This document shows, in pieces, positions 2,177 to 58,590 of a DNA stretch of 64,000 nucleotides. Both the position numbers and the translations under genes were made by a program. The stretch spans positions 49,414,001 to 49,478,000 of the forward strand of contig NC_043004.1 in NCBI RefSeq assembly GCF_006345805.1, written 5' to 3'. The notes under the pieces were generated by a model. The model saw nothing but the letters and a program-made list of their open reading frames with translations, ran no database searches and was not told where the DNA came from. Origin of the DNA: Octopus sinensis (lineage: Eukaryota). Numbering within the stretch: the first letter of the stretch is position 1; each line of letters starts with the position of its first letter.

Positions 2177-2775
2177 TGCCATGCCTACACCTGTAACCAT
2201 ATGATTCTTTTTTTCTTTATGATGGTGTTGGACAAGTTTAAAAGTTTAAAATCCTTTTTATCATCATTATAACATCCACTTTTCCATGCTTGCATGGATA
2301 AGATGTAATTTTCGTGAGGTGGACTTACTATGACTAGATGCCCTTCCTGTCACCAACCTTCACCTGTTTTCAAGTAAGGTAATATTTCTGGCAGTGAGCT
2401 GGCAGAATTGTTAGCGCATTGGGAAAAACGCGTTGCAACATTTCTTCTGTTTACACGTTCTGAGTTCAAATTCTGTTGAGATCAACCTTGCCTTTCATCC
2501 TTTTGAAGGTCAATAAAATAAATACCAGTTAAACATTGGGGGCTGGTTACACCAACTTACTGTTTTCCCTGAAATTGCTGGCCTTGTGCCAAAATTTGAA
2601 ACCTATATTTCTCTTTGACCAAACATGCTTTCATGGAAGATTGCAAATGCAGGACACCACTTGCCTAACAGGGACATTCGTTTACAACTATTATGTGATG
2701 TGAAGGCAAGGAGACAGTAGTGCGCTCACACATAGACATGTGTGTGTGTATATATATATATATATATAGATATAT

Positions 2776-3330
2776 ACTTCTTTTACTTGTTTCAGTCATT
2801 TGACTGCGGCCATGCTGGAGCATTGCCTTTAGCTGAACAAATCGACCCCAGGACTTATTCTTTGTAAGCCTAGTACTTATTCTATCGGCCTTTTTTGCCG
2901 AACTGCTAAGTTACAGGAAGTAAACACACCAGCATCAGTTGTCAAGCGATGTTGGAGGGACAAACACAGAAACACACACATATACACATATATATATATA
3001 TAGACGACAGGCTTCTTTCAGTCTCCATCTACCAAATCCACTCACAAGTCCTTTGTCAACCCAAGGCTACAGAAGACACTTGCCCAAGATGTCATGCTGT
3101 GGGACTGAACCTGGAACCAGGTGGTTGGTATGCAAATTACTTACCACAAAGCCACTTCTGTGCCTATATATGTATGATGGGCTTCTTTCAGTTTCAGCCT
3201 ATCAAACCCATTCATAAGGCTTTGGCTGACCTGGAGCTATAGTACAAGACACTTGTGCAGCAACACTGGGATTGAACCCCAAACCATGTCGTTGGGAAGG
3301 AGGAAGGAAACTTCTTACCATCAGCCATCT
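2776..3330 (-). mobile_element. Family A SINE plus a tandem partial duplicate
   Basis: Reverse complement of the 10140 copy, with a second head region at ~3170-3330. Confidence 0.8.
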
Positions 3331-6090: not shown

Positions 6091-6303
6091 TACTCTTTAC
6101 TCTTTTACTTGTTTCAGTCATTTGACTGCGGCCATGCTGGAGCACCGCCTTTAGTTGAGCAACTCAACCCCGGGACTTATTCTTTTTGTAAGCCCTGTAC
6201 TTATTCTATTGGTCTCTTTTTGCTGAACTGCTAAGTGACGGGGACGTAAACACACCAGCATCGGTTGTCAAGCAATGCTAGGGGAACAAACACAGACATA
6301 CAA

Positions 6304-6335
<32 letters not shown>

Positions 6336-6509
6336 TATATATATATATATATATATAATATATATATATATATATACATATATACAACAGGCTTCTTTCA
6401 GTTTCCGTCTACCAAATCCACTCACAAGGCATTGGTCGGCCCGGGGCTATAGCAGAAGACACTTACTCAAGATGCCACGCAGTGGGATTGAACCCGGAAC
6501 CATGCGCCT
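6091..6509 (-). mobile_element. Family A SINE inserted in a P1 MITE
   Basis: Reverse complement of the 10140 copy, with MITE sequence on both sides. Confidence 0.82.
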
Positions 6510-9423: not shown

Positions 9424-10139
9424 GACTTTTCCTATACTTAGGGTGGCATGTATGTCAAACCTTAGATCACTATTTCAGGTATTTAGCTGATACCTTATAT
9501 ATTACTGTGTGCAAAGTGTAATTTTGCATGATGGGAAGATATGGGCACTGAATGCAGTAGGTGTATGAATGACAGGAAGAAAGGAAGTGTGCTTGATGGT
9601 AATGTCAACATATATTATTGATGGGGCAGAAGTGACCGAAGGAAGAGAATGGGCATATGACAGGAATTGGTTACAGTGTGCAAGAAATATGTGATGCATA
9701 GAATGCATGACAGTTGGGTGAAGCAAAGATAACACTTTCCATACTACAAATGCCATATTAATGGTTAAAAGATGTATATCAGCATCTCTGGGATTTTATG
9801 GCTCTGTGAGTGATGCATATATCTACCATTGGTATTTCATAGCTATAGATAAAAGACACTTCTATGTGTCTGTGGCATGGAGAGTGTTCAATGAATCAAT
9901 TGGAAGAAGCAGGGGAAAGAAGACCAAGGAAGAAGTGGTGTTGGCTGACCTCTGGTTGCTGAGCCTCCCAAAGGAGATAAAAGACTGCGACAAGCAGTGA
10001 GGTTTTTGTAATAGAGAAGACCTCTTCAACCAGTGGATGTGAAAGTGATGGTGATTGATTAATATCTTATACATGCTACTCAATATTTTCTTCTGCAAAG
10101 TTTGCTTTACCATGACTGTTATAGGAAGTTAAAGATATA

Positions 10140-10554
10140 GGCGCAAGAGTGGCTGTGTGGTAAGTAGCTTGTTTACCAACCACATGGTTCCGGGTTCAGT
10201 CCCACTGCATGGCACCTTGGACAAGTGTCTTCAACTATAGCCTCGGGCCGACCAAAGCCTTGTGAGTGGATTTGGTAGACGGAAACTGAAAAGAAGCCCG
10301 TCGTATATATGTATGTATATATATATATATCTATCTATGCATGTGTGTGTTTGTGTATCTGTGTTTGTCCCCCTCGCATTGCTTGACAACCGATGCTGGT
10401 GTGTTTATGTCCCCGTTACTTAGCAGTTCGGCAAAAGAGACCGATAGAATAAGTACTGGGCTTACAAAAGAATAAGTCCTGGGGTCGAGTTGCTCGATTA
10501 AAGGCGGTGCTCCAGCATGGCCGCAGTCAAATGACTGAAACAAGTAAAAGAGTA
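10140..10554 (+). mobile_element. tRNA-derived CORE-like SINE (family A, similar to octopus OR-type), full length
   Basis: A box tggctgtgtgg, B box ggttcagtccc, caccttggacaagtg, internal (TA/TG)n, 3' end cagcatggccgcagtcaaatgactgaaacaagtaaaagagta. More than 12 copies in the window. Confidence 0.85.
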
Positions 10555-11479
10555 TATGCCTTCATTTAGCTGAAATAAGTAACTGAACTAGTTATTTATT
10601 TATTTATTTATTTCATTATTGAATATCTATTTTTGCATGTTGGCATGATTTAGACACAGATTTGCTATTACTTGATCCAGCTTCATCTTGGCTGGGACTC
10701 TTAACATTGTGCGATCTAATCTCATTACTTCCTCCTGCATCTCCCACAAACCTCTGTTGCTATGGTGGCTTTCTATTGACAGCATACAACAGTTGTCTTC
10801 CATTTTTCACATCACATGTCCATACCAGCCTGTCTGACTGCCTTTAATACCCAGTCTCCCCCTCTCTCATCTCTTTTAGTTCTCTCCACCATTCATACAT
10901 GTTCCACATTCAATGCTTTTCTCTCATTACTCATTGCATTTTACTCCTTTCATAGTATTCTGAACCTGTGTCATTTAAAACATTTTATTGTGTGTGTGTG
11001 TGTATGGTAGCCCATTAGTTTCATAGTTTGGGGCGCTTGAGCTAATTGTTAAATACCATAAAACTAAATATGACTATAATTTGTCAGGCTATTAATTTCA
11101 TCTTTAGAGATGAAAAATATTTTAGTATTTACATTTATAATTCGCTTTGATTGGTCTCAGCTCTTAATGTTTACTGTTTTATTACTAGATGTGTACACAG
11201 TAGTGAACTGGTTTTGAACTCGGATCATTTATTTCTAAACTAAGATAGTAATAAAGCTCTCATCCACTGGGCTACTAATGGATGTGCTATTAGTCAACAC
11301 TCTGTAGGTTGTTTAGCCATTTTGTTATATTTCTATTGAAATGTACTGCTTTTATTGACGTTAATTTTGAAAATAATGAATTTGGTGAAATAACTTGGTC
11401 ATTATTATATTAGTATTAGTATTTGAAACATAAATTAATATAAAATTTTGATGGAAAGCTTCTATTTAGATCTCTTTAA

Positions 11480-13317: not shown

Positions 13318-13444
13318 GTTCGTCCTTCGGGTTCGAAGATGACCATTGACATCATTTGGTGGAAATGCTGCTATGAGACCGGAGGTGGCTGGTGAGGCCA
13401 ATCCGGGCAAGAAAGCCCCTCCCACATATATATATATATATAGG

Positions 13445-13900
13445 CTATTGTTGTTTTACTCGGTAGATTGTACAACGTATGTGTGCGAACTGCCATGCTT
13501 CACAGCAGTGAAACATGGGCCGTGACTGCGGAGGACATGCGTAGGCTCAAAAGAAATGATGCTAGCATGATCCGCTGGATGTGTAATGTCAGTGTGCACA
13601 CACAGCAGAGTGTAAGCGCTCTGAGAGAAATATTGGACATAAGAAGCATCAGATGTAGCGTGCAAGGGAGACATTTGCGCTGGTATAGTCATGTACTACA
13701 GATGGATGAGGAGAGCTGTGTGAAGAAGTGTCACTCCCAAACAGTTGAAGGAATCTGGGGTAGATGCAGACCCAGGAAGACATGGGATGAGGTGGTGAAG
13801 CATGACCTTCGAACGTTGGGCCTCACAGAGGCAATAACGAAAGACTGAGACCTCTGGAGATATGCTATGACTGCGAAGACCCGGTAAATAAAGTGAGTTT
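13445..13900 (+). mobile_element. RTE-clade LINE fragment (C-terminal region after RT)
   Basis: YNVCVRTAMLHSSETWA...LRWYSHVLQMDEE...GRCRPRKTWDEVVKHDL motifs typical of RTE/BovB ORFs. Confidence 0.85.
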
Positions 13901-15609
13901 ACGGCTGCATCCTACACCAGTTGCACATAAGCAACCCCAGCCCATTCAAAAGTACTTTGGATAATAGGGCGACCTGCTGTGCTTGAGGAGACCTATTGAG
14001 TCAAGTACATCAACATCAAAATGAAAATCAAATGGAAACTGTAGTTGTGATGCCCGTGCTGGTAGCACGTAAAAAGCACCAACTGATTGGGGCCATTGCC
14101 AGCCTCCTCTGGCCCCTGTGCTGGTGGCCCGTAAAACGCACTCACTGCACTCAAAGTGCCGTGCAGTGAGACTGAACCCGAAACCATGGAGTTGGGAAGC
14201 AAGCTTCTTAACACACAGCCATGCTTGAATCTATAATATATATATATACATACACACACACCTACTCATCTTTTAGTCCATGACTCTTTACAAGGCCGTC
14301 TGAGACTGGTTGGAAGAAGTTATCCTCAAACTGCAGGCTTAGCCCAGATGCTTGTAGGAGAGTGGAATCCATGGTGTTAAACTTGGCAACAGGTTAAGTC
14401 CACCTCTAACCACATGGAACATGGCAAGATTTGAAGAATGCATATTACCAGGACAAATACTGCATGGCATCCAGTCTGTTATGTCATGCCCTGGATAGGT
14501 ACTTTTTTGTTAACCCCTTTGAGATTTGAACACAGAGTGCAAAGAATTAAACAAATACTGTGTAGCTTTCTATCCAATGTGCTGATGTCTCCAGTATGAT
14601 ATGATTATATAGTTTGTAGTGACAGTAAGCTTTTAATATCTTGAACTTCTAGCTCCGATTTCTGTCCTTTTCACTTGTACATCATGGAATAGCTGTTGGT
14701 TGTTACATTTTCCAAGGTAAACAGGATTGATGTTTGCAGGGGATTCGCATCAGTGGACAAAAATCTGGATGTTTTTTTTTTTGAGAGACTCTGAAATGTT
14801 TATATAAAAGAACATGTAAGGAAATCTTTAATGAGAGGAGAGGCATCTTAATCAGGGCTGGCTGAATGTATATGAAGCGTAAAAGGAAATCGTTGCTATG
14901 GATTGAAATATCTATAATTGACAGAGTCATGGTGGTAATATAGAGAAATCAAAAGCAGCAATATATACAGAGCTCATAGAAAAACCAATCAGTTATTCTT
15001 GTATTGAAATTAGATCAATAAGCATGTTGTTTCTAAAAAAAAAATCTAAAAATGTGACGTTAAGTCTACATACTTAGTGGATAAGAGTATCCCCTAATTT
15101 AGAAATATAGATACTATATACACCTCCAGGAATAAGATACTTGATGACAATCAGAAATTAAACTCATCAAAATATGGTGTAGGTGTAAATATTAAAGCAT
15201 TTTTTCTCTCTGAAGATGTGGTTGATAGTTTGAAAAATTTTAATTGTATTGTAAAAATAATCTCAGAGATTTAGACATTTAACCACAAAGCTTAAGTCTC
15301 TATAATCTTGGTTTCAGTATGACTGTTTAAAATATTAGGGTCTGAACACCCTAATATATTTACATTGTTTTGAATTAATCATGCATTATCTCATAACTTC
15401 AAGATTTTGATGATGTGATTGTTTAATTTTAGAATAACATTGAAAAGTAGGGTTGAACATAAAACTGGTTTAAACATAAAATATTTGGTCTTGATATGGA
15501 TGGTTTGAATACTAAAGATCAATTTTGAAAATAATAAAGAATTTATTGAAATAGATTTGTCAGCATTAAGCTGGTGTTTGGAATATAAATTATGAAATTT
15601 TTGTGGAAA

Positions 15610-15988
15610 GGTGCAGAAGTAGCTGTGTGGTAAGTAGCTTGCTAACCAACCACATGGTTCCGGGTTCAGTCCCACTACGTGGCACCTTGGGCAGATGTCT
15701 TCTGCTATAGCCCCGGGCCGACCAATGCCTTGTGAGTGGATTTGGTAGACGGAAACTGAAAGAAGCCTGTCGTATATATGTATATGTATGTATGTGTGTT
15801 TGTCCCCCTAGCATTGCTTGACAACCGATGCTGGTGTGTTTACGTCCCCGTCACTTAGTGGTTCGGCAAAAGAGACCGATAGAATAAGTACTGGGCTTAC
15901 AAAGAATAAGTCCCGGGGTTGATTTGCTCAACTAAAGGCGGTTCTCCAGCATGGCCGCAGTCAAATGACTGAAACAAGTAAAAGAGTA
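15610..15988 (+). mobile_element. Family A SINE
   Basis: Near-identical to the 10140 copy. Confidence 0.85.
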
Positions 15989-18436
15989 AAGTTTTCATTA
16001 TATTTTAAATCAGTGAATTTGTATCCATAGGGCTTGGGCTGGCTTGTATCAAAAGGGTCATCATGGTATACCTACAACTGCAGTGTTATTGCTAAACATT
16101 GAACACTCCATCCAGCTGTTACTTAGTGTTACACTACATTCGAAATCTAGTTGTTCTCTTTACACATCTGTACCAGTTCAGCCATCTGTTGACACCCTGC
16201 TTACTGACAATGGTCAATATTTCTGTCTTGATAGATACCTATACAAACAAGTTGCCAGGTAAAGAACAAAGCCATGCCTGCTGGTGATGTGATGTATATA
16301 AACAAGTTGGAGGAAAAGAGACTCAGTATTCTTCTTTTTCCTGATTTCAGTCATTAGATCAAGTTGATGTTGGGGCAACACATTCAAGGCATTTAATCAA
16401 TAATATTGACCCCGGTACTTTGTCTGGTACTTATTTCATTGATCTCTGAAAATGAGCCTATGTGTTTGTGTGTGCCCGATGGTTGTAAATGAGCATCATT
16501 GTCATGCAAGATTGCTCATTTTGAGTCTTCTGTGGAAAACATGTCTGGCCATGGGGGCAAATATTGCTGAGCTTCAACACAGGTAAGCATTGGTGACTGA
16601 AAGGACTTCTGGTTGTAGGAAATCTACCTCAACAGATTCTATCTGATCCATGCAAGCATGGCAAGGTGGACATTAAATGAAGATGATGGTATATATTCAT
16701 TTGTTTTATGCTCATTATGACTATTGAGACATTGTTTTACAGCGAGATGCCTTTCCTGTTGCTAACTTTTACCCTTTTACCTGTTTCACAGCCAAGAGAT
16801 CTTTTATTTCACTTGTCTTTGCAGGCGCAATGTGAGAGAATAAATTTGGTCATGGAAGTGACATTTAATATACTGCTTGTAGCCTGCAACTTATGTAGAT
16901 GTAAAGAGAAAGACATGTCGTTTAAAAATTTCTTACTTGAAAAACAGTAATGGTGAGGGTTATCAAGAGGAAGGCATCTGGTTGTAAAATTACTTGTCGC
17001 TAATAAGAATTCAGTCAACCCATACTATCATGGAAGAATGGATATAAAACAAATCACTGAAAAATCACACACACACATACACACAATATTGATTTCTGAT
17101 ATTGGCAGAAAGTTACATTTTTAGAGAAGATACAGTTCAGTGAATTCCTACCCTCACTTATTTGTAATATTTTGAATATCAGTTTGTCTCTATTGAAAGC
17201 TGACATAACCCACTGAGGAAGCCTCTACATGATCTGTCAGTCTGCTGGAAATAGCAGCCAAGTATCCTTCATATTGCACTCTATTTAATGATCACATTGT
17301 TTAATGTTGTCCTAGATATATATATATATATATATACCAATTTTGAATGAGGAGGGGTGGTCATGCTGGAATACATTTGATCATAGGTCCACAGGCTCAG
17401 GGCTCATGTAAAGCTAAACAACAACAGCAGCAGGAATTCATTTATTTATTTATTTGCATCTGTTGTTATACAAGGGGAAAGAAATGAATGAAAGGCAGAT
17501 CCCAGTTGTCCCTAAGATTTAAGTGTGACGAGGAGGTGGGTCCTGAATGATATTTTTGAAATCATAACTAACTCTGCTCTCCCTGTCAATGTAAGTGTAT
17601 ATGTGTATTGTGTGTGAGAGAGAAGAAAGAGGCTGCTTTTTTTGAACTAGCAAATCTATTGACTTTCAACTGACTAGTGGCTGTTATTCTCTGCCACTAT
17701 AGTGTCTATGTTGCTGTTAATCTATATATGCAAATTGCCAAGCCTCTGTGCTTTCATTGCTATAGCTACTGTTAATGATCAGATCTGTGTGTGTGTGTGT
17801 ATGTGTGTATGTAGGCATGTGTATGTGTTGCAATGATTCATTATGATGACAGGTTCAGTTTCAGTCGAGTTTTAGCTTCACACAATAGACACACGTCTGA
17901 CCAATCAATATCACTAAATGTGCTTTAATAATTCTATCAGTTGTTTCTTGTTTGTTTTCACCTGGAAGATGCAGAGGACAGGTGCTAAGCTACTCTCTTT
18001 GTTGAGGGATGGCTTGTTAGAGCATAAAAAGCAGTTTCTAACCACTGATCTTTATATATTATTCTGTTTTTCTAGATATTTTATCATATTTCTTACACCT
18101 TAAGCTGTGGTAGGATTACTGTGTTAGACATGTACCAATGGACCATGTAGATTTGGTGCAAGTGCCAATTTCAGTTAGGAAGGCTTGTTTGTTATCAACT
18201 ACTTTAACCATTGGTCTAGTTGTTCTATCCATTATTATTTGTTTTTCATGGTCTCAATGTATCTAATCAATCTTTCTTATGCCCATTATAACAAACAATA
18301 CTTTTTTTAGCTTCAGTGGGAACAAAATAGACAACAATGAAGCACCAAATTAAATATAAAGGGTACTGTCTCATTCTCTTACTGTCTTCATGGCCCTCAG
18401 AAATTTTGCTTTGGTTGCAATATGATATAGCTAACA

Positions 18437-18630
18437 GGCGCAGGAGTGGCTGTGTGGTAAGTAGCTTGCTAACCAACCACATGGTTCCGGGTTCAGTCCC
18501 ACTGCGTGGCATCTTGGGCAAGTGTCTTCTGCTATAGCCCCGGGCCGACCAATGCCTTGTGAGTGGATTTGGTAGACGGAAACTGAAAGAAGCCTGTCGT
18601 ATATGTATATATATGTATGTATGTATGTAT
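18437..18630 (+). mobile_element. Family A SINE, 5' half ending at the microsatellite
   Basis: Head nearly identical to the other copies. Confidence 0.8.
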
Positions 18631-19224
18631 GCTCAACTAAACATTGTTTAGTTGAGCATGGAAGATGTTGAGATATACCAGGCAAAATTTAGAGGAGTGT
18701 TTGTGCAGATTTCAAAATTTGGTCTCACTGTTAAATGACTCATGGTTATATCACATGTGGAAAGGTTTTCTGTTGAAGGTCCTTATTTTTATTTCATCTC
18801 TTAAACTGTGATAAGGAGGAAGGGACATTATCTATATATCTTGGAGGAAGATAATAAGAGAGTGGTATAAATAGTGTTAATAATGTGCCAGTTTGTAGTT
18901 TAAAGGTTAGTTGTTCTTGGAAAACAATTAGCTTATGAGCTCTACTGGGATGGATTGGTGTTTAATTAATGCCAGGATTAAGGGATGGGATACAGTAAAA
19001 TTAACAAGAGAAAAAGGTTTTAAAGAGTGTGATCATCAAGTTCAGAAGATCAGAGGGTGTTATAGAAGTGATAGGACAGTTTATTGAGGCCAATGTGTTG
19101 AATGAGTTTTTTTTGTTTTTCATTGGGAAAATTGAGTATTTAAACAACCATGATAATGTGTTGTGTATGTGAGTGCATGTGTACTTGTGTGTAATAGCCT
19201 TTTTTTTTCCAACCAGTCACCATG

Positions 19225-19404
19225 CTTGACTGCTAAATTCACAAGTTTTTCTATTCTATCTCTGTTTATCTCTCTTACTCCTGTCTGTTGAAGAGCGTAG
19301 GCTCGAAACGTAAAAGACTTTCTCACTTTCCCAACCGTCAAATACATCTGCTTGTTGTTCATATACCTGTCTTCGTCTTTTGTTTTTCTGTGAATTTCAA
19401 CTAT
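19225..19404 (+). repeat. Dispersed ~180-bp repeat carrying a hammerhead-like motif (19281-19316), copy 1
   Basis: ctgt-CTGTTGA-a-gagc(gtag)gctc-GAAA-cg-TA-aaag. Matching inverted copy at ~22890-23080. Confidence 0.6.
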
Positions 19405-19405
19405 A

Positions 19406-19859
19406 GGTGGAGGAGTGGCTATGTGGTAAGTAACTTGCTTACCAACTACATGGTTCCAGGTTCAGTCCCACTGTGTGGCACCTTGGGCAAGTGTCTTCTA
19501 CTATAGGCTCGGGCTGACCAAAGCCTTGTGAATGGATTTGGTAGACGGAAACTGAAAGAAGCCTGTCATATATATGTGTGTGTATATATATATATATATG
19601 TATGTATATATGTATGTGTATGTATATATGTATGTATGTATGTATGTTATATGTGTGTGTGTGTGTGTGTTTGTCCCTCCAACATCGCTTGACAACTGAT
19701 GCTGGTGTGTTTAAATTCCTGTAACTTAGCAGTTCGGCCAAAGAGACTGATAGAATAAGTACTAGGCTTACAAAGAATAAGTCCTGGGTTTGATTTGCTT
19801 GACTAAATGCGGTGCTCCAGCATGGCCTCAGTCAAATGACTGAAATGTGTAAAAGAGTA
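19406..19859 (+). mobile_element. Family A SINE with expanded internal microsatellite
   Basis: Collinear with the 10140 copy. Confidence 0.83.
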
Positions 19860-19867
19860 TATATACG

Positions 19868-19916
<49 letters not shown>

Positions 19917-23159: not shown

Positions 23160-24024
23160 AAAACAGTTTGATTCAGACTCATTGGTACTCTGAGTTTCAT
23201 GCGTGTGGCTAGTCTTTGGCCACTGGGGTCTGAATGAGAGTTTGATTGCAGAGAATCAATGTTTATTACCGGATGTTAGCCTGTGATTGGTGGAGACAGG
23301 TCATGTGGTATAGCAGTTGGATGTCAGTATTTCAGCGACAACAATTAGTTGGAAAATACTGCATGGTGAACAGGAAATCGACCCCATGGTGAACAGGAAA
23401 TCGACCCCATGGTGAACAGGAAATCAGCCCCATGGTGAACAGGAAATCGACCCTATGGTGAACAAGAAATCAGCCCCATGGTGAACAGAAAATCAACCCC
23501 ATGGTGAACAGGAAATTGACTGTGTGTTGGACAAGAAATTGGTCGTGTGGTTGTGGGGAAGTAGGAAGGGGCAGTAGGTGTGGGGGGTGTATATGTATGT
23601 ATTTACATGTATATGCCCATAATCTGCTTGCATGTATCTATTTATTTGAGTGTGTATGTGTGCTTACACATACACACTCGTATAAGTACGGATGCATACC
23701 CACTGATATATGGGCATATACATCTACATATATACTCTCACATCTACCACCCCTTTCTACTCCCCCCCCCACCACATAACCAATTTCTTTTCCACCACAT
23801 GGTCGATTTCCTGTTCACCATGTGGTATTTTCCAACTAATTGTTGTCGCTGAAATACCAGCATCAAACCGCTATACCACATGACCTTTCTCGATCAGTCT
23901 CAGGCTAACATCCAGTTATAAACATTGACTCTCTTCAATCGAACTCTCATTCAGACCCCAGTGGCCAAAGACTAGCCGCACACTTGAAACTCAGAGTACC
24001 AAGAAGTCTGTATTAAACTGTTTT
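23160..24024. repeat. ~860-bp imperfect palindrome (foldback) centred near 23663
   Basis: The reverse complement of the right arm aligns with the left arm from the ends (aaaacagttt / aaactgtttt) to the centre. Confidence 0.85.
23363..23520 (+). repeat. 23-bp minisatellite, ~7 units (atggtgaacaggaaatcgacccc)
   Basis: Units start at 23363, 23386, 23409, 23432, 23455, 23478 and 23501. Confidence 0.95.
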
Positions 24025-24933: not shown

Positions 24934-25015
24934 GACACTAACCCAATCTTTGTATTCAGTAAAGTAACCATTGAAGCTAACATACCACCATCTCCCTGTA
25001 TCAACTATGGCACAG
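24934..25015 (+). CDS. RB1CC1: RB1CC1 coding exon 3 (DTNPIFVFSKVTIEANIPPSPCINYGT)
   Basis: Acceptor ttgcAG, donor GTAAA, 82 nt. Resembles human DTNPIFLFNK. Confidence 0.93.
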
Positions 25016-25159
25016 GTAAACTCATTCTCTTTATATTCTTAGTACAAGCACACACACACACCTGCTTGCATACACACACACACATTTTGCATCATCTTAA
25101 TCGTTATTTTATGTATGCTCCTTCATGCTGGCCTTGATTCCATTACAACATCTTGCCAT

Positions 25160-25592
25160 ATTCAATTCAATTCAATTTTTATTGGCTCAAAAAGCAAAAG
25201 CAAGGCCATGTAGGAGGTCAGGGAGTTATGTACAGGGAGGGTGGTCATACAAAGAGTTCAGGCCATTTCTGGTCAAGAGAGACTTTGAACCAAGCGGTTG
25301 TCGTCATCTTCACTATCTCGTCCGGCAGCTTATTCCACGGATCCGCAACCCGGACGGAGAAAGCCCCTCTCCTTCGACTGAGATAAAATCGTCGTAGATA
25401 GAGCTTTTCGGAGTGACCCCGCAGCCCACGCTCTGGAGCAGGAGTGAAGAACAGCTCTTTCGAGAGGTTACACTTTCCGCTTATGATGTTGTGAGTGAGA
25501 ATGAGATCACCACGGCAGTGTCGTTTTTCGAGAGAATAAAGGTTGAGCGTCTTCAGCCTTTCTTCATAAGACCAAGAACCATACGGGTAGCC
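25160..25592 (-). mobile_element. CR1-clade LINE 3' fragment
   Basis: Minus strand translates YEERLKTLNLYSLEKRHCRGDLILTHNII...RGHSEKL...FSVRVADPWNKLPDEIV...FKVSLD, with an (attga)n tail. Confidence 0.85.
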
Positions 25593-26338
25593 TGAAATGG
25601 TATTGCATTATTTGCTACACAGTGTTGCCTTAAGGCAGTTGCCTGGGATCCCGAAAGGTCAAGGGAGCCACTTCTGATCCATCTATGTTATGGCTTACTA
25701 TCAATAAATAAATGTTGTTTTGCCCAGGGACCTATAATGCAACTTAAACAGCTCTGCTGCTGCACAAAAAAAAAACAAAAACAGCAACCAGCTAGCTTGT
25801 TATGTATTGCATGTTATGTTCTATGACTGGATGCCCTTCTTATCACCAACTATTTTATGATATGGACTGAGTACATTTTATGTCACTAGAGAGGTTATAT
25901 ACCAGGACTGAATTGCTCCCTCTATTCTGTATTAATTTTCATTTAGTGCTACAGTCCTCTTACATTTGCATGTGTGTGCATACAATGGCCTTTCAGTTTC
26001 CATCTACCAAATCCACTCACAAGTGTTTTGTTGACCAGGAGCTTTAGTAGAAGGCGCATGGCTCAGTGGTTAGAGCGTCGAACTTACGATCATGAGGTTG
26101 TGAGTTCGAATCCCGGACCGGGCTGCGTGTTGTGTTCTTGAGCTAGACACTTTATTTCACATTGCTCCAGTTCACTAAAGATATTTGTGCGGTGGTGGAG
26201 CGATACAGGACTGTCACGTTAAGTTGCCAGTATACAACCATTCTATCGCTCCTCCACCGCTCATGTCTCTATGAGATATTTAGAAATTTAATATTTCTGA
26301 TTTTGGTGATCAGTGAATAAACTTCACTGAAAATATAT

Positions 26339-26381
<43 letters not shown>

Positions 26382-26421
26382 GAAGTCTAGACAAATATCT
26401 TCAGCTATCAGGCCTTGCTAC

Positions 26422-26467
26422 TCTAGACTGATGATGGTCAAGACCCAGAAACATGCATGTCTCTAGA
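26422..26467 (+). ncRNA. Type I hammerhead ribozyme (minimal, Penelope/retrozyme type)
   Basis: tctaga-CTGATGA-tgg(tcaagac)cca-GAAA-ca(tgca)tg-TC-tctaga. All core nucleotides present, stems I/II/III pair, GUC cleavage triplet ends at 26461. Confidence 0.88.
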
Positions 26468-26629
26468 TGCAGGCCTAGCTGTTGGGGGTGTTTGTTTCCC
26501 CTTCATAAGTATATAAGGACACAGGAAATGTGTCAAGGCCGACAGGAAGCGTCGATGCTTCCTAGGGCTAAACAGCGGTGGTGTAATTCCCTTACGGGAT
26601 TGTCACGTTAAGTTGACAGTATACAACCA

Positions 26630-26668
<39 letters not shown>

Positions 26669-27292: not shown

Positions 27293-27336
27293 GTATCACA
27301 CCACTCTCTGACTATATCTCTCCTTTATTATTCCAG

Positions 27337-27422
27337 ACAAAGTCCTCACAGATGCCATCAGTGAAGTTGTACTTCTACCTGCCACTCATGAGACAGTTTC
27401 AGATGCTTACAAACTGGCTAAG
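27337..27422 (+). CDS. RB1CC1: RB1CC1 coding exon 4 (DKVLTDAISEVVLLPATHETVSDAYKLAK)
   Basis: Acceptor ttccAG, donor GTATC, 86 nt phase 1->0. Resembles human LMMPAVFHTVASRTQLA. Confidence 0.88.
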
Positions 27423-27480
27423 GTATCTCTGCCTTTAAATCTTTGCCATCACAAATCATCATCAATGTTCTTATCATTAA

Positions 27481-35029: not shown

Positions 35030-35264
35030 GTAAGTAGTTGACTTTCATCTCAGTTGTTTGACTTGGTCAGTAGCTAATAGGCATCAGATTTTGGTGTTGA
35101 TAATTATCCTGTAATCCAGGGTCACCTAACCATCAGATGGTGGGCCGATATTGGGTCATAGATCATTTGATTCCAGGCTGCACAGAAAGAATAAATTTTA
35201 AAATTTTATTTCTATTTTATTGACTTTTGCAGTCTGCATGGTGTTTTTACATTATATAGTTGTG

Positions 35265-35597
35265 AAGGTGCATGGCTCAGTGGTTAGAGCGCCGAGCTTA
35301 CAATCGTGAGGTTGTGAGTTTGAACCTGGACCGGGCTGTGTGTTGTGTTCTTGAGCAAGACACTTCATTTCACGTTGCTCCGGTTCACTCAGCTGTAGAA
35401 AAGAGTTGCGATGTCACAGGTGCCAAGCTATATTGGCTGGTGCCTTTCCTTTGGATAACACTGGTGTCATGGAGAGGGGAGGCCGGTATGCATGGGTGAC
35501 TGCTGGTCTTCCATAAACAGCTTTGCCTGGACTTGTACCTGGGAGGGTATTTTCTAGGTGCAATCCTACAGTCAGTCATGACCAAAGGGGGTCTCAG
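35265..35597 (+). mobile_element. tRNA-derived SINE family C (Meta/CORE-like central region)
   Basis: A box tggctcagtgg, B-box-like gagtttgaacc, gtgttcttgagcaagacact. Other copies at 26051-26176 (5' part), ~60915-61140 and ~31500-31680. Confidence 0.78.
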
Positions 35598-38800: not shown

Positions 38801-39365
38801 TTAAAGAAGACACATACCCAAGGTGCCACACGATGGGACTGAACCTGAAACCATATAGTTTGGAAGGAAACTTCTTCCCAGACGACCACACTCATCCCTC
38901 AGGCATAGCATTACAGCATTATTTTGTACAGCCGCTACACACACTGACCAAGTCCCAACTCACCCTATGTGTTCACTGATCACTCTGCATATCACCAGCT
39001 CTACTGCCAGCTGCCCCAGAGTCTCTTGAAATCAATGTGGTTTGAATTGAACCAGTGTCTCTGAAGATGAGAAGTTAACAAAATATCCATCCGCTTCACA
39101 GCTGTATTTGCTGCATTAGGTACCAGTTATACACTGAGATCAGGCAGATTGGCTGCAGTTTGAACTTAATGGACCCACTTACTAGGGAATCAGTGGTAGC
39201 TATGCATGTCTTCTAAGGATTTCAAGATCCAGTTGGCATGGTTGGGATTGAACCTGTAAAGTTGGAGTGGCAACATATTGACTAGCAGAATTTGAACTTG
39301 TATCCAGTACCTTCTCTCTTCTATATTTTAATCAATATGAAAAGGAAAACAAAATATATATATAT

Positions 39366-39773
39366 ATACTCTTTTACTTGTTTCAGTCATTTTGACTGCG
39401 GCCATGCTGGAGCACCGCCTTTAGTCAACCAAATCGACCCCGCGACTTATTCTTTGTAAGCCCAGTACTTATTCTATCGGTCTCTTTTGCCGAACCGCTA
39501 AGTGACAGTGACGTAAACACACCAGCATCGGTTGTCAAGCAATGCTAGGGGGACAAACACTGACACACAAACATATACACACACATTTATATATATATAT
39601 ACATATATACAACAGGCTTCTTTCAGTTTCCGTCTACCAAATCCACTCACAAGGCATTGGTAGGCCCGGTGCTATAGCAGAAGACACTTGACCAAGATGC
39701 CACGCAGTGGGACTGAACCCGGAACCATGTGGTTGGTTAGCAAGCTACTTACCACACAGCCACTCCTGCGCCT
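39366..39773 (-). mobile_element. Family A SINE, young
   Basis: Near-exact reverse complement of the 15610 copy, inserted in (TA)n. Confidence 0.85.
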
Positions 39774-40216
39774 ATATATATATATACTCAATGCCAACAA
39801 ATTAATAAAGATGTAACCACTATACACACCTGAGGTGTGTAGAGAATATTTTGATGTCCATAAGATTCATCATCATCAGCATTGTTTAACGTCTGTTTTC
39901 CATGCTGGTATGGGTTAGATGGTTTGACTGAGAACTGGCAAGCTAGTAGGCTGCACCAGGCTCTAATCTGATCTGACAAGGTGTCTACAGCTGGATGCCC
40001 TTCCTAATGCCAGCCATTCTGAGAGTGTATTGGGTGCTTTATACATGTCACTGGCATTAACCACATTTGGATGGTGCTTTTTACATGCCACCAGCACAGG
40101 GAGCCAATCAGGCAGCACTGACATTGGCCACAACTACAATTTCCATTTTGATTTCAATTTTACTTGACACAGTAGGTCTTCTTAAACACAGCATATTACC
40201 CGACGATTCAAGGGTA

Positions 40217-43430: not shown

Positions 43431-43455
43431 TTGTTTCATATATATATATATAATA

Positions 43456-43852
43456 TCTTTTACTCTTTTGCTTGTTTCAGTCATTTGACTGCGGTCATGC
43501 TGGAGCACCACCTTTAGTCAAGCAAATCGACCCCAGGACTTATTCTTTGTAAGCCTAGTACTTATTCTATCGGTTTTTTTTGCCGAATTGCTAAGTTACG
43601 GGGATGTAAACACACCAGCATTGGTTGTCAAGCGATGTTGAGGGGACAAACAAAGACCCACAAACATATACACGCACATATACATATATATACATATATA
43701 CGACGGGCTTCTTTCAGTTTCCCTCTACCAAATCCACTCACAAGGCTTTGGTCAGCCCGAGGCTATAGTAGAAGGTGTCATGCAGTGGGACTGAACCCGG
43801 AGCCATGTGGTTGGTAAGCAAGCTACTTACCACACAGCCACTCCAATGCCTA
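43456..43852 (-). mobile_element. Family A SINE
   Basis: Reverse complement of the 10140 copy. Confidence 0.83.
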
Positions 43853-44442
43853 TATAAATAGAGCACGAATGCAGACCCCACACTTAAAAATAATATATAT
43901 ATCTTAGGTGAGTCTATAGTAAGTACAAGATTCCAGATGCTGTGCTGCAGGACTGAACCTAGCAAAATACAACTGACAGACTAAAAATTTATTTCCATTA
44001 TAATATAATATAATATAATATAATATAAGAAGATATAATATAATATAACATAACAAGTTAAAAAAACAACAAACAAATATAAAGCCAACTATTTGTTTTG
44101 ACTCACTATACTAGTGAGTTTATTAAAAAATTCACATATATCTTTTCGGTGTCAGGTGAATCATGTCTTGTTGATGACAATCACTAAACCATAGCAATGT
44201 TACCCTACTTCATTCACAGAACCACATAAAGGTTCCCTCTCCTTCCCTACTCACTGGGCCAAATCGAACTTCTACCTTTTTTTGAATCATATCAATTATT
44301 TCTCCCTATTCAGGGTGCCTTATCAACATTCCTTCATACTTAAGTCATTTCAATACTCTTCACCCTATTTATTGAGCCATGTCAATGTTCTTCTCCACCC
44401 CTGCTCACAAAACCTTATCAATGTTTCTTCTTCACCCTACAG

Positions 44443-49995: not shown

Positions 49996-50738
49996 GTGTT
50001 ATTATATATAGTGAAAGTTGTTTTCAGTAAAATTGTTGTTGACTATTTCCAGTTTAGCTTCGGACTCAGAAATCTTATGAAATATTCTTCTTCTGCCTTC
50101 CGGAGAAGGCCGTTCTCTTCATTTATTTTATGAAGAGGGAAAATTGTAAATTTTCCTTGTGCACAGATGTCCAAATGATCACTACGTGGTATGCATCTAA
50201 GAGCGAGATTTTTTATTTGAAGTCTATGCACATTTACACGGTTGGTTAGTTTCATTTTTGTTTCCCCAATATAATGTTCATTGCATCGTGGGCATGTTTG
50301 TAGAATCCCAAGAACCACATTATTCTACAAACAGCCAAACGCCTTCTTCCATTTTTACACCAGTTCCCAAGTCTCCGATGCACAATCAAGGAACAACAAA
50401 TAATCAACAGCCGAAGGCAACCCCCAAATCTTAAGAAACTTCTAACCAAAGCAAGATTTGCATCAGAGAAAGAAATGATGCGAGTTACCAAATGTGGAGA
50501 CCCCCCCCCCCCGTTATGGGACATGTGATTTAATAGAACAGGGACCAACCGAAAAATTCAAGAATGGAAAAGAATTAAAGGTGGATGCAAATATAAACTG
50601 CAAATGCAAAAACCTGATATGTTGTATCACATGCCTACGATGCAACGAACATTATATTGGGGAAACAAAAATGAAACTAACCAACTGTGTAAATGTGCAT
50701 AGACTTCAAATAAAACATCTCGCTCTTAGATGCATACC

Positions 50739-50976
50739 TATACCTATTTCTTTACTACCCACAAGGGGCTAAACACAGAGAGGACAAACAAGGACAGACA
50801 AACGGATCAAGTCGATTATATCGACCCCAGTGCGCAACTGGTACTTAATTTATCGACCCCGAAAGGATGAAAGGCAAAGTCGACCTTGGCGGAATTTGAA
50901 CTCAGAACGTAACGGCAGACGAAATACGGCTATGCATTTCGCCTGGCGTGCTAACGATTCTGCCAAGCTCGCCGCC
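50739..50976 (-). mobile_element. Young Nin/Deu-domain tRNA-SINE (family B) inserted in the Penelope ORF
   Basis: Full-length copy with core gcctttcatcctttcggggtcgataaattaagtaccag. 13-bp TSD ttagatgcatacc at 50726-50738 and 50977-50989. Confidence 0.88.
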
Positions 50977-51379
50977 TTAGATGCATACCATGTAGTGATC
51001 ATTTGGACATCTGTGCACAAGGAAAATTTACAATTTTCCCCTCTTCATAAAATAAATGAAGAGAACGACCTTCTCCGGAAGGCAAAAGAAGAATATTTCA
51101 TAAGATTTCTGAGTCCGAAACTAAACCGGAAATTTAGTAAAATAACAATTTTACTGAAAACAACACTCTAAATATGTGTGTATGTGTGTGTGTATTTATA
51201 TATATATATTCACGCATACATACATACACACATATATACATATATATATATAAATAGGTGTGTGTGTGTAATTATGGGTGTTGAGTCCCCTTCATATGAA
51301 AAAGACAAAATTATAACTTAGAACTTTGATCAATAGAAAATAAAATATTTTTGAGACAGCAGTAAGTGCTGGTGTTTAT

Positions 51380-56519: not shown

Positions 56520-57835
56520 AATATTGTATACAAGTCTATGGGCTTCAGATGATGTTTATATAACAATCTTTCTCTCTGGAAGGCATCCCTCCAACCATCA
56601 ATTATCTTTGCTGTATTATTGTAAAAAAAAACATCAGTTGATGGTTCAATCTTGCTTAGCACCCGCTTTATGTGATGAATTGTTCACTGTTTTAATATTT
56701 AGTGAATCTCAAAATTTGTCCCTTAAATCACTAATGGCACTGCTTTACTGATTTACTGAGGCATCTTGAAAATGAGCTGGTTAATGAGTTTGGGTGATCT
56801 TGAAGTTTCATTTTGATTCTACATCTCTGAATCATGCATGCTTAGCCCCTTTAGTAAGGCCAAACCTCAGATGGTGCCCTATGACATTCAATTGGGTTGA
56901 GCTTAGGAAGACTGTTGACTCTCCTCTCCCTCTACTGTTACAGAATGTAATATTTATAACTTACCCAAGGAATTAAAACAGAATCTGTCATAAATGAGCC
57001 CTTCGCTAGTGATTATCTGTTTTAAGTAGCTCCTCATCATTACAGCCAGCATCCAAGGGTTAACTGTCAATGGAGCTGTTAGCTAGGGATCTTAACTCTC
57101 CCAAAATTAAAGGATTAATATTTTTAGAATAAAAAGAGAAAATTAGGGTTTAAAATCTGTTGGAAGGTGAAGTGGTGTGTATGTGTGCACACGTGTGTGT
57201 GTGTGTGTGATGGTGATGTGTATGTATGTGTGCTTGTGTTTTGAGAGGTGAATTGGTGTGTGTGTGAGTGTTGCTGTGTAGAGACTTTATATAAATGCAG
57301 ATATACACTGTCAATGTGAATCTGGGTACAGCTAAACGGGTTGCACTTCCCTTTTCAAAAACTTACAATCCTTTTGTGGAGAAATCAGTCAAATATGATA
57401 CTGAATACAGATGGAACTAATGTTTCCCCGCAGGACTCTAACTCCATCTTCAGTTACTCAGAGGATAACTTTAGAGAGGTTTGTTTCATGTTTTGTTAGT
57501 TACTGCAATTAATGAGTGATTCAACAATACAGTTGCCTAACTCCTCACTCAAAGACTGTTGGGCTGAAGTATGAGGCTGGTTGTATGTGGCCAGGAGGTA
57601 AGATCATAACATTAGTTAATAGATGATAGTCATGTGGTAATGTTTGTGGTTACCCAGGAGTGCAGAGTGCATTGCTGAGAGGGAGAAAAGAAACTGATAT
57701 GAGTAACTGAGAATTCTTACTGATTTATACAGACTGATTTTGGGTCAGCATAAATTTTATGAACTGGACTGTCATGTGGATTGCCATTGTGGAAATTGTC
57801 TCATGATTGGTGGGTGTAGATTGGTTAGTTGATAT

Positions 57836-58590
57836 TTGCAGATGACATGGTGCTGGTTGGCTTTCGAAAGGTACTCTCCTGCATGTACTAAACGGGCTCA
57901 CTGCCGAGTGCAGCAAGGCATGGTTGAGAATTAGTGTTGCGAAGGTTGAGACACTAGGTTCTCTCAAGAAAGTTTTCCCAGTCTACTCTGCATGTTAGTG
58001 GAACATCACTGAGACAAGTTGAGACGTTTAAGTATCTTGGAGCTATGTTCATGAGTAATAGGAAACAAGGGCTGAATTTGATGTGAGAATTGCAGGTGCT
58101 GGCACAGTAATGGACCAGCTCCAGCATGTGATTCTTGGAAGTGGAGAGATTGGTAAAAAAGTCAAACATGCTATCTTCAATTCAGTTTTCGTGCCTGTCC
58201 TTACCTATGGTCATGAAATGGACAGTAACCAACAAAGTATGATCGTGAATACAAGCAGCCAAAATGGAGTTCCTCAAAAGGATCTCTGGAGTATTGTTAT
58301 TTGGGTAGGACTCAGAGATCAGGGAGTCTCTCCAGGTCAAGCCATTGCTTGTCTGCATTGTGAGGTCACAGCTCTGTTACTATGAATGAGTCACAAATTG
58401 GTTTCTTGAAGCCAAGCCAACTTGGCAGATCTGGGGATTGATCGACAGTGAGATGGCTGGGTAATGTCCATGGTCTCAGTTGTTTGGGAATCCAGATGGG
58501 AAATGTAATGACAATTGCTCATGGTAGGATCCTATGGAGGAGATACCTGTGAACACTACCCCCATGACCCTCCCAGGAATAATGGATGGA
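57836..58590 (+). mobile_element. Degraded RTE-like LINE RT fragment
   Basis: QVETFKYLG and RIAGAG...KHAIFNSVFVPVLTYGHE motifs, with frameshifts. Confidence 0.75.

Follow-up and report, generated by a model that had tools for sequence, protein, structure and literature searches.

A hammerhead ribozyme in a high-copy, retrozyme-like insert of an octopus RB1CC1 intron

The window analysed here, a stretch of 64,000 nucleotides of Octopus sinensis DNA, contains a non-coding insert of about 450 bases with one hammerhead ribozyme, and the locus raises the question of what kind of element this insert is and how it came there. Retrozymes are repeats that are cut by their hammerheads and accumulate as circles, with elements of the Penelope-like type (PLEs) proposed as their mobilisers, according to PMC7229834. 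A preliminary description of the sequence had taken the insert for a slightly-more-than-monomer insertion of a retrozyme-like family in a cephalopod.

Setting and anatomy of the insert

One coding exon in the window shares 87% identity with RB1CC1 of Octopus bimaculoides and 69% with that of Argonauta, and from these exon identities the host is indeed a cephalopod, namely an octopodid. Two RB1CC1 exons located by tblastn (24934-25026 and 27336-27473, both on the + strand) flank the insert, which lies in the sense orientation within the intron between them. Exons of RB1CC1 (FIP200) were seen at 21286-63939 (+), most of them with about 85-100% identity to O. bimaculoides. The 5' end of the insert is at about 26179 (earlier placed at 26189), and its 3' end is near 26635. 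Directly upstream, on the same strand, is the head of a tRNA-derived SINE (26050-26176, +), the target, which is outside the element and ends where the insert starts. It is 90% identical to a second SINE copy at 35264-35389, and A and B boxes are recognisable in both copies. A pol III transcript would likely be stopped ahead of the ribozyme by the T4 run at 26301-26304. Past 26176 the public contigs carry other sequence than the window, and the continuation of the SINE is absent from the intron. At the 3' junction of the insert is a (TA)18 tract (26633-26668, +), a likely target. No target-site duplication was found, as the insert flanks tested have no common non-TA word of 5 nt or more.

The 39-bp direct repeats reported in the preliminary description (26208-26246 and 26597-26635, spacing 389) were recovered with 36 of 39 positions identical; the best 39-nt match in 30 shuffles of the 1,565-nt stretch without TA tracts was 27 of 39. 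They lengthen to 43 nt at 91%, and we regard these copies (26204-26246 and 26593-26635, both +) as a terminal redundancy of 39-43 nt, of which the second copy is the 3' end of the insertion. The unit length is 389 nt, or 340 nt without the TA tract. Behind the first copy come the 3' part of the family unit (26247-26332, +), which has three short hairpins and is high-copy to about 26300-26315, a (TA)25 tract (26333-26381, +), which is either internal to the unit or the junction of two pieces, a predicted ribozyme-bearing rod of 145 nt (26371-26515, +), and a hairpin cluster (26516-26596, +), which is the highest-copy region of the family. The rod is made of helices 26371-85/26501-15 and 26389-405/26481-97, followed by stem I of a type I hammerhead (26410-26476, +) with the predicted cut after 26461. 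The small hairpins noticed earlier are present at 26518-34, 26544-63, 26588-99 and 26602-18, and none of 200 shuffles folded as low as 26500-26635 (z = -3.7). The insert was also said to have no ORF, in agreement with a longest stop-free stretch of at most 58 codons in six frames.

A 17-bp inverted repeat (26189-26205 / 26244-26260) had been included in the unit, with the first direct repeat as its loop. The inverted repeat exists, with 16 of 17 positions matching, and it lengthens to 27 nt at 81% (26179-26205 / 26244-26270); the fold of 26179-26272 has z = -6.1, with 0 of 200 shuffles as low. The first direct repeat is placed as described, but it overlaps the right arm by 3 nt. What did not hold is the membership of the inverted repeat in the unit. 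In the DNA-type run X1, family depth in the bin 26181-26207 is about 55-fold below that in the next bin, and the left arm is therefore placed outside the common unit. This 5' fragment (26179-26205, -) is a reverse copy of 26244-26270, and three of the five mismatches between the arms are at positions where a listed family allele would pair. Judging from the sequence, the left arm is most likely an inversion made at the insertion of this locus. A different account, in which the direct repeat reaches a shared GCGGTGGTG, was rejected; this 9-mer follows from the family helix of 26575-83 with 26252-60, and an inversion fits the left arm better.

The hammerhead ribozyme and the predicted fold

The hammerhead stood up as one canonical type I motif with a full core, namely CUGAUGA at 26428-34, GAAA at 26448-51 and GUC at 26459-61. 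It is the sole full type I pattern in the window on both strands, and such a pattern occurred in one of 100 shuffled windows. The Rfam search gave no matches at the gathering threshold, and none of the 26 rows obtained with E up to 10 was a hammerhead family. A second core-like match at 57422-57453 was rejected, as it fails the stem test. In this copy, 20 of the 21 listed hammerhead pairs are formed in three helices, with helix I open. Stem I has 6 bp (26422-27 / 26462-67); beyond it are a 3-by-1 internal loop and eight further pairs. Stem III (26451-60) is palindromic over its 10 nt and can pair with a second copy along its whole length. Stem II (26435-47) has three pairs and a U-C mismatch here. 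A G at 26438, found in about 98% or more of the depth in all four runs aligned, restores the fourth pair; the change at this position is peculiar to this copy and costs stem II one pair. With the family allele, stem II has 4 bp and a 5-nt loop ending in A. The known tertiary contact is compatible with the U at position 1.7 and with the A that ends loop 2. The Sm-alpha hammerhead of Schistosoma mansoni is alike in its 6-bp stem I with internal loop, its U at 1.7 and its CAA..A-type loop 2 ending in A; its flanking sequence differs. A conserved reverse Hoogsteen pair in hammerheads is mentioned in PMC6155905. The family-allele geometry, with helix I of 6 bp, helix II of 4 bp (3 bp in this copy) and a short palindromic helix III, corresponds to the definition of canonical metazoan motifs given in PMC4209133.

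The circular fold of the unit has 67% of its bases paired and z = -7.3, with none of 40 shuffles as low. On the ribozyme strand, the two basal helices of the rod contain 25 Watson-Crick, 7 G-U and no A-C pairs; one of the G-U pairs occurs in this copy alone, and for two more, part or most of the family has Watson-Crick pairs. In the modelled fold, this asymmetry of G-U without A-C points to selection on the + strand RNA. Variants were covered for 40 of 92 rows, of which 18 lie inside the element and 17 could be placed on the predicted fold. Seven of these family alleles keep a pair, six are unpaired and four break one, which is a count of compatibility and not of covariation. Two of the four pair-breaking alleles fall within stem II, a region in which the fold of minimum energy differs from the hammerhead. 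The allele at 26438 restores a hammerhead pair, and that at 26435 breaks one unless 26447, which is not among the listed variants, co-varies. For this copy, an inactive alternative fold is more stable than the hammerhead fold by 5.8 kcal/mol. With its single ribozyme and a broken stem II pair, this copy is predicted to release no circle and to cut RB1CC1 pre-mRNA weakly at most. With one ribozyme only, and a weakened one, it probably has no activity and is tolerated by the host intron.

Copies and joints of the unit in public contigs

Among 24 listed runs, 20, from four organisms, contain part of the stretch; none contains half of it, and none of the runs containing part is recorded as RNA. 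Contigs of four runs from three organisms, the DNA-type X1, X4 and X7 and the presumed RNA run X9, were aligned at 80% likeness. A multi-copy family, as the preliminary description had supposed, was found in the three organisms, and a single-copy unit is contradicted by summed depths of 1e5-1e6. These depths were reached over 26208-26315 and 26505-26612 in X1 and X4, where single-locus contigs have depths of 26-60. A rough conversion gives about 1e4 copies at the peak, with the ribozyme at a few hundred, depth not being copy number. The family allele of stem II is carried by 30-64 contigs per DNA run.

The coverage of the unit is uneven. In X1, X4 and X7 the peak exceeds the depth at 26435 by a factor of 28-38, a ratio that is soft, as the depth of the ribozyme half may be lowered by its greater divergence. 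Depth drops at about 26300-26315 and recovers only from about 26397. The largest step, 4- to 6-fold, coincides with the foot of the rod (about 26505-26515) and may be sharpened by private changes at 26496, 26505 and 26509 and by the variable TA run. Coverage of the ribozyme half is thus about 30-fold below that of the 3' half, so that the majority of family copies are probably without the ribozyme and 3' parts dominate. A family of intact tandem monomers is disfavoured by the same 28-38-fold lower coverage. In X9 the element is covered with a DNA-like profile and an element/SINE ratio of 0.014 versus 0.037-0.11, these contigs showing neither expression level nor circles. A 24-nt family pattern had no matches in metagenome, prokaryote and viral collections, and the hammerhead pattern had none in metagenomes.

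Fifteen of 16 joints were examined; rows at both TA tracts were dropped, so that the monomer-closing junction is outside these data. Four of the 15 go back by 357-386 nt, from 26574-26593 to 26208-26229, and the landing points of go-back joints (26204-26229) are in the first copy of the terminal redundancy; one of the four is also present in X9. Most of these joints need not leave the direct repeat. The joint 26585 -> 26229 (X4), with 31 letters on its shorter side, extends at least 13 nt beyond it, and the family depth over 26247-26315 corresponds to the direct repeat followed by the segment from 26247. From this joint and this depth, we read the direct repeats as the overlap of a permuted unit. 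A further joint, 26266 -> 26421 (X4, one contig), has the order of the window, 3' part and then ribozyme, at another locus. Inversions within the element account for three of the 15 joints. A contig with two hammerheads was not seen in the four runs, in which TA-tract junctions were masked; head-to-tail joints are present at other loci. The preliminary interpretation stands in part: the direct repeats behave as the overlap of a permuted unit, with passages from 265xx to 262xx elsewhere, and ribozyme-less 3' parts dominate the family. In X1, a joint 26463 -> 26601 exits two bases past the predicted cut and re-enters at the repeat; it is on a single contig with a side of 22 and may be due to chance.

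Origin of the insertion and comparison with known elements

We consider it fairly probable that the insert is a decayed, slightly-over-monomer non-LTR retrozyme of a high-copy family, placed by a Penelope-like reverse transcriptase (RT). A source locus of tandem units would be transcribed, and its hammerheads are predicted to cut after GUC, aided by the palindromic stem III, through which two units would pair with each other. The released unit would be about 340-390 nt long, and a host ligase may close it into a circle. A Penelope RT/GIY-YIG protein would nick a TA-rich target and initiate inside the RNA. Copying from the 3' end at ~26632, through the ribozyme and for one full turn with about 43 nt more, would give the direct repeats, for which the template could equally be a circle or an uncut multimer. 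A terminal template switch would add the 27-nt inverted piece, and the target SINE would lose its 3' part. As suggested by the depth, most events may stop early near the foot of the rod and give ribozyme-less copies of about 190 nt.

The insertion marks, a 5' inversion and TA targets, are Penelope-like. PLE insertions are described with partial tandems, with 5' inverted copies and with microsatellites as targets (PMC8557442), and the insert has a partial tandem, a 5' inverted piece and a microsatellite target. The protein of one PLE nicks AT-rich DNA and initiates reverse transcription inside its RNA, with ribozyme cleavage dispensable in the assay (PMC11167929). In O. vulgaris, PLEs occupy 6.83% of the genome, with 31 recently active families (PMC13282606). 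The GIY-YIG Penelope remnant that had been noticed in the window is real: at about 50017-51171 are two C-terminal pieces of GIY-YIG, inverted to each other, and a SINE interrupts them at about 50745-50973. Its match in Pfam alone is weak (E 0.032), and a full scan with the GIY-YIG piece gave 462 relatives at E up to 0.001. Ten long relatives were scanned; all ten have a C-terminal GIY-YIG and four have RVT_1, in the canonical PLE order. A word-based search for longer GIY-YIG relatives gave none among 39 candidates, and no hammerhead was found beside the remnant. Between the DNA of the remnant and that of the unit there are only short, non-significant matches, the best at E 0.047 in the flank of the remnant, and no shared terminal motif. 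Because no significant DNA similarity links the two, the presence of the remnant shows only co-occurrence with the unit.

Retrozymes are a known kind of element, found in corals, mussels, amphibians and many other animals, and the insert falls within their size and coding definition of a non-coding 150-450 bp unit with a type I hammerhead. The closest known relatives in kind are the non-LTR retrozymes of mussels; those of Mytilus galloprovincialis have repeats of 350-390 bp (Cervera and de la Pena 2020, PMC7229834). Shared features are the type I hammerhead, a unit of similar length (340-390 nt here), many copies, co-occurrence with PLEs, strong self-pairing and no ORF, LTR, PBS or PPT seen. 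A target-site duplication of more than 4 bp is optional in metazoan retrozymes (PMC7229834). The octopus locus differs in its one ribozyme, in the TA tract inside the apparent unit and in the dominance of ribozyme-less 3' parts. In addition, loops 1 and 2 look canonical in the octopus insert, whereas the mussel motifs described are without most tertiary nucleotides. Li, Clavereau and Pollet (2026, 10.64898/2026.07.22.740005) treat retrozyme monomers as non-autonomous PLE derivatives with a proposed origin from pseudo-LTRs (pLTRs), from 31 vertebrates, three insects and one anthozoan, with no mollusc. Their retrozymes are similarly dispersed as solo monomers, many of them intronic, but the octopus copy falls outside their 'active' definition of two consecutive complete ribozymes. 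No cephalopod retrozyme was found in the literature searched, whose scope excluded most subscription papers and the supplement of PMC7229834, which may list cephalopod repeats. In the portions used, the review PMC7761336 does not mention octopus or cephalopods, and the cephalopod repeat paper PMC8967140 does not mention a ribozyme. If the retrozyme reading is confirmed, cephalopods are added to the hosts of retrozymes and a large octopus repeat family is identified as ribozyme-derived. Its many copy ends could be used to test which retrotransposon mobilises animal retrozymes, and the circle as template.

The unusual point of the family is its apparent excess of ribozyme-less progeny. We offer tentatively, as possible rather than probable, a wider proposal that this major octopus repeat is a retrozyme with mainly ribozyme-less progeny. 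The Penelope RT would start at a fixed internal site and usually stall at the foot of the 145-nt rod, giving on the order of 10,000 SINE-like 190-nt copies versus a few hundred ribozyme-bearing ones, and rare read-through on a circular template would give the over-monomer copies. If this is true, copy ends would map the start and stall sites of the Penelope RT in vivo, and octopus tissues would hold abundant small circular RNA.

It is unlikely, but deserves weight, that the unit is the pLTR of an autonomous Penelope-like family and the locus a truncated terminal fragment, with no independent small RNA. The pLTRs of PLEs share with the insert a type I hammerhead with palindromic helix III, a partial tandem, a 5' inverted piece and an AT-rich or microsatellite target (PMC4209133, PMC8557442, PMC11167929). 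The 3'-heavy, 5'-tapering depth and the inversions are PLE marks as well, and Li et al. (2026) relate retrozymes to pLTRs. Three long contigs extend 285-544 nt upstream of 26397-26405 with unlike sequence that could be an ORF. However, the insert differs from PLE pLTRs in having no attached RT/GIY-YIG ORF; such an ORF is absent from the insert locus, and the insert has no flanking ORF. An ATG at the start of stem II is 28 nt ahead of the cut, compared with 26 nt in an anole element, but its frame stops after 10 codons, in stem I. The hammerhead is canonical and not minimal; helix I has 6 bp and helix II 4 bp in the octopus family, versus 4-5 and 7-8 bp in the minimal motifs of Schistosoma PLEs (PMC4209133). 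The long basal rod with its G-U pairs also fits a small structured RNA.

Similarly improbable is a composite, in which a ribozyme-less 3' piece (26204-26332) and a ribozyme piece (about 26371-26632) were inserted separately at the TA tract, so that 389 nt is not a natural unit. This would account for the depth drop at about 26300-26315 and the rise only from about 26397, where several contigs end or diverge. Each piece ends in a TA tract, and nesting is expected from the preference for TA together with about 1e4 copies, a rough figure. On the other hand, the joint 26266 -> 26421 in X4 has the same order at another locus, a helix, partly low-complexity, joins the last part of the TA tract to 26501-26515, and the spacing agrees with known monomer sizes. 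A host-kept intronic ribozyme regulating RB1CC1 is very improbable: the sense orientation in the RB1CC1 intron and the intronic hammerheads of amniotes (PMC6155905) would suit it, but the insert interrupts a SINE, is one of a high-copy family and is missing a pair of stem II which about 98% of that family retains.

Several other repeats were observed in the window. The 3' end of a LINE-type RT ORF was recognised by eye at 25245-25607 (-), without a Pfam match. C-terminal LINE fragments, also found by eye and presumably RTE-like, are at 13444-13848, 1886-2170 and 58062-58385 (all +). A repeat family of roughly 420 bp has at least eight copies with 75-95% identity (2750-3175, 6095-6504, 10135-10580, 15609-16014, 18436-18632, 19402-19893, 39354-39783 and 43438-43860), and a second family of about 200-230 bp has many copies in the window. 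A minisatellite with a 23-bp unit in 6.9 copies, which has an inverted duplicate of 242 bp at 88% identity, is at 23160-23539 and 23783-24024.
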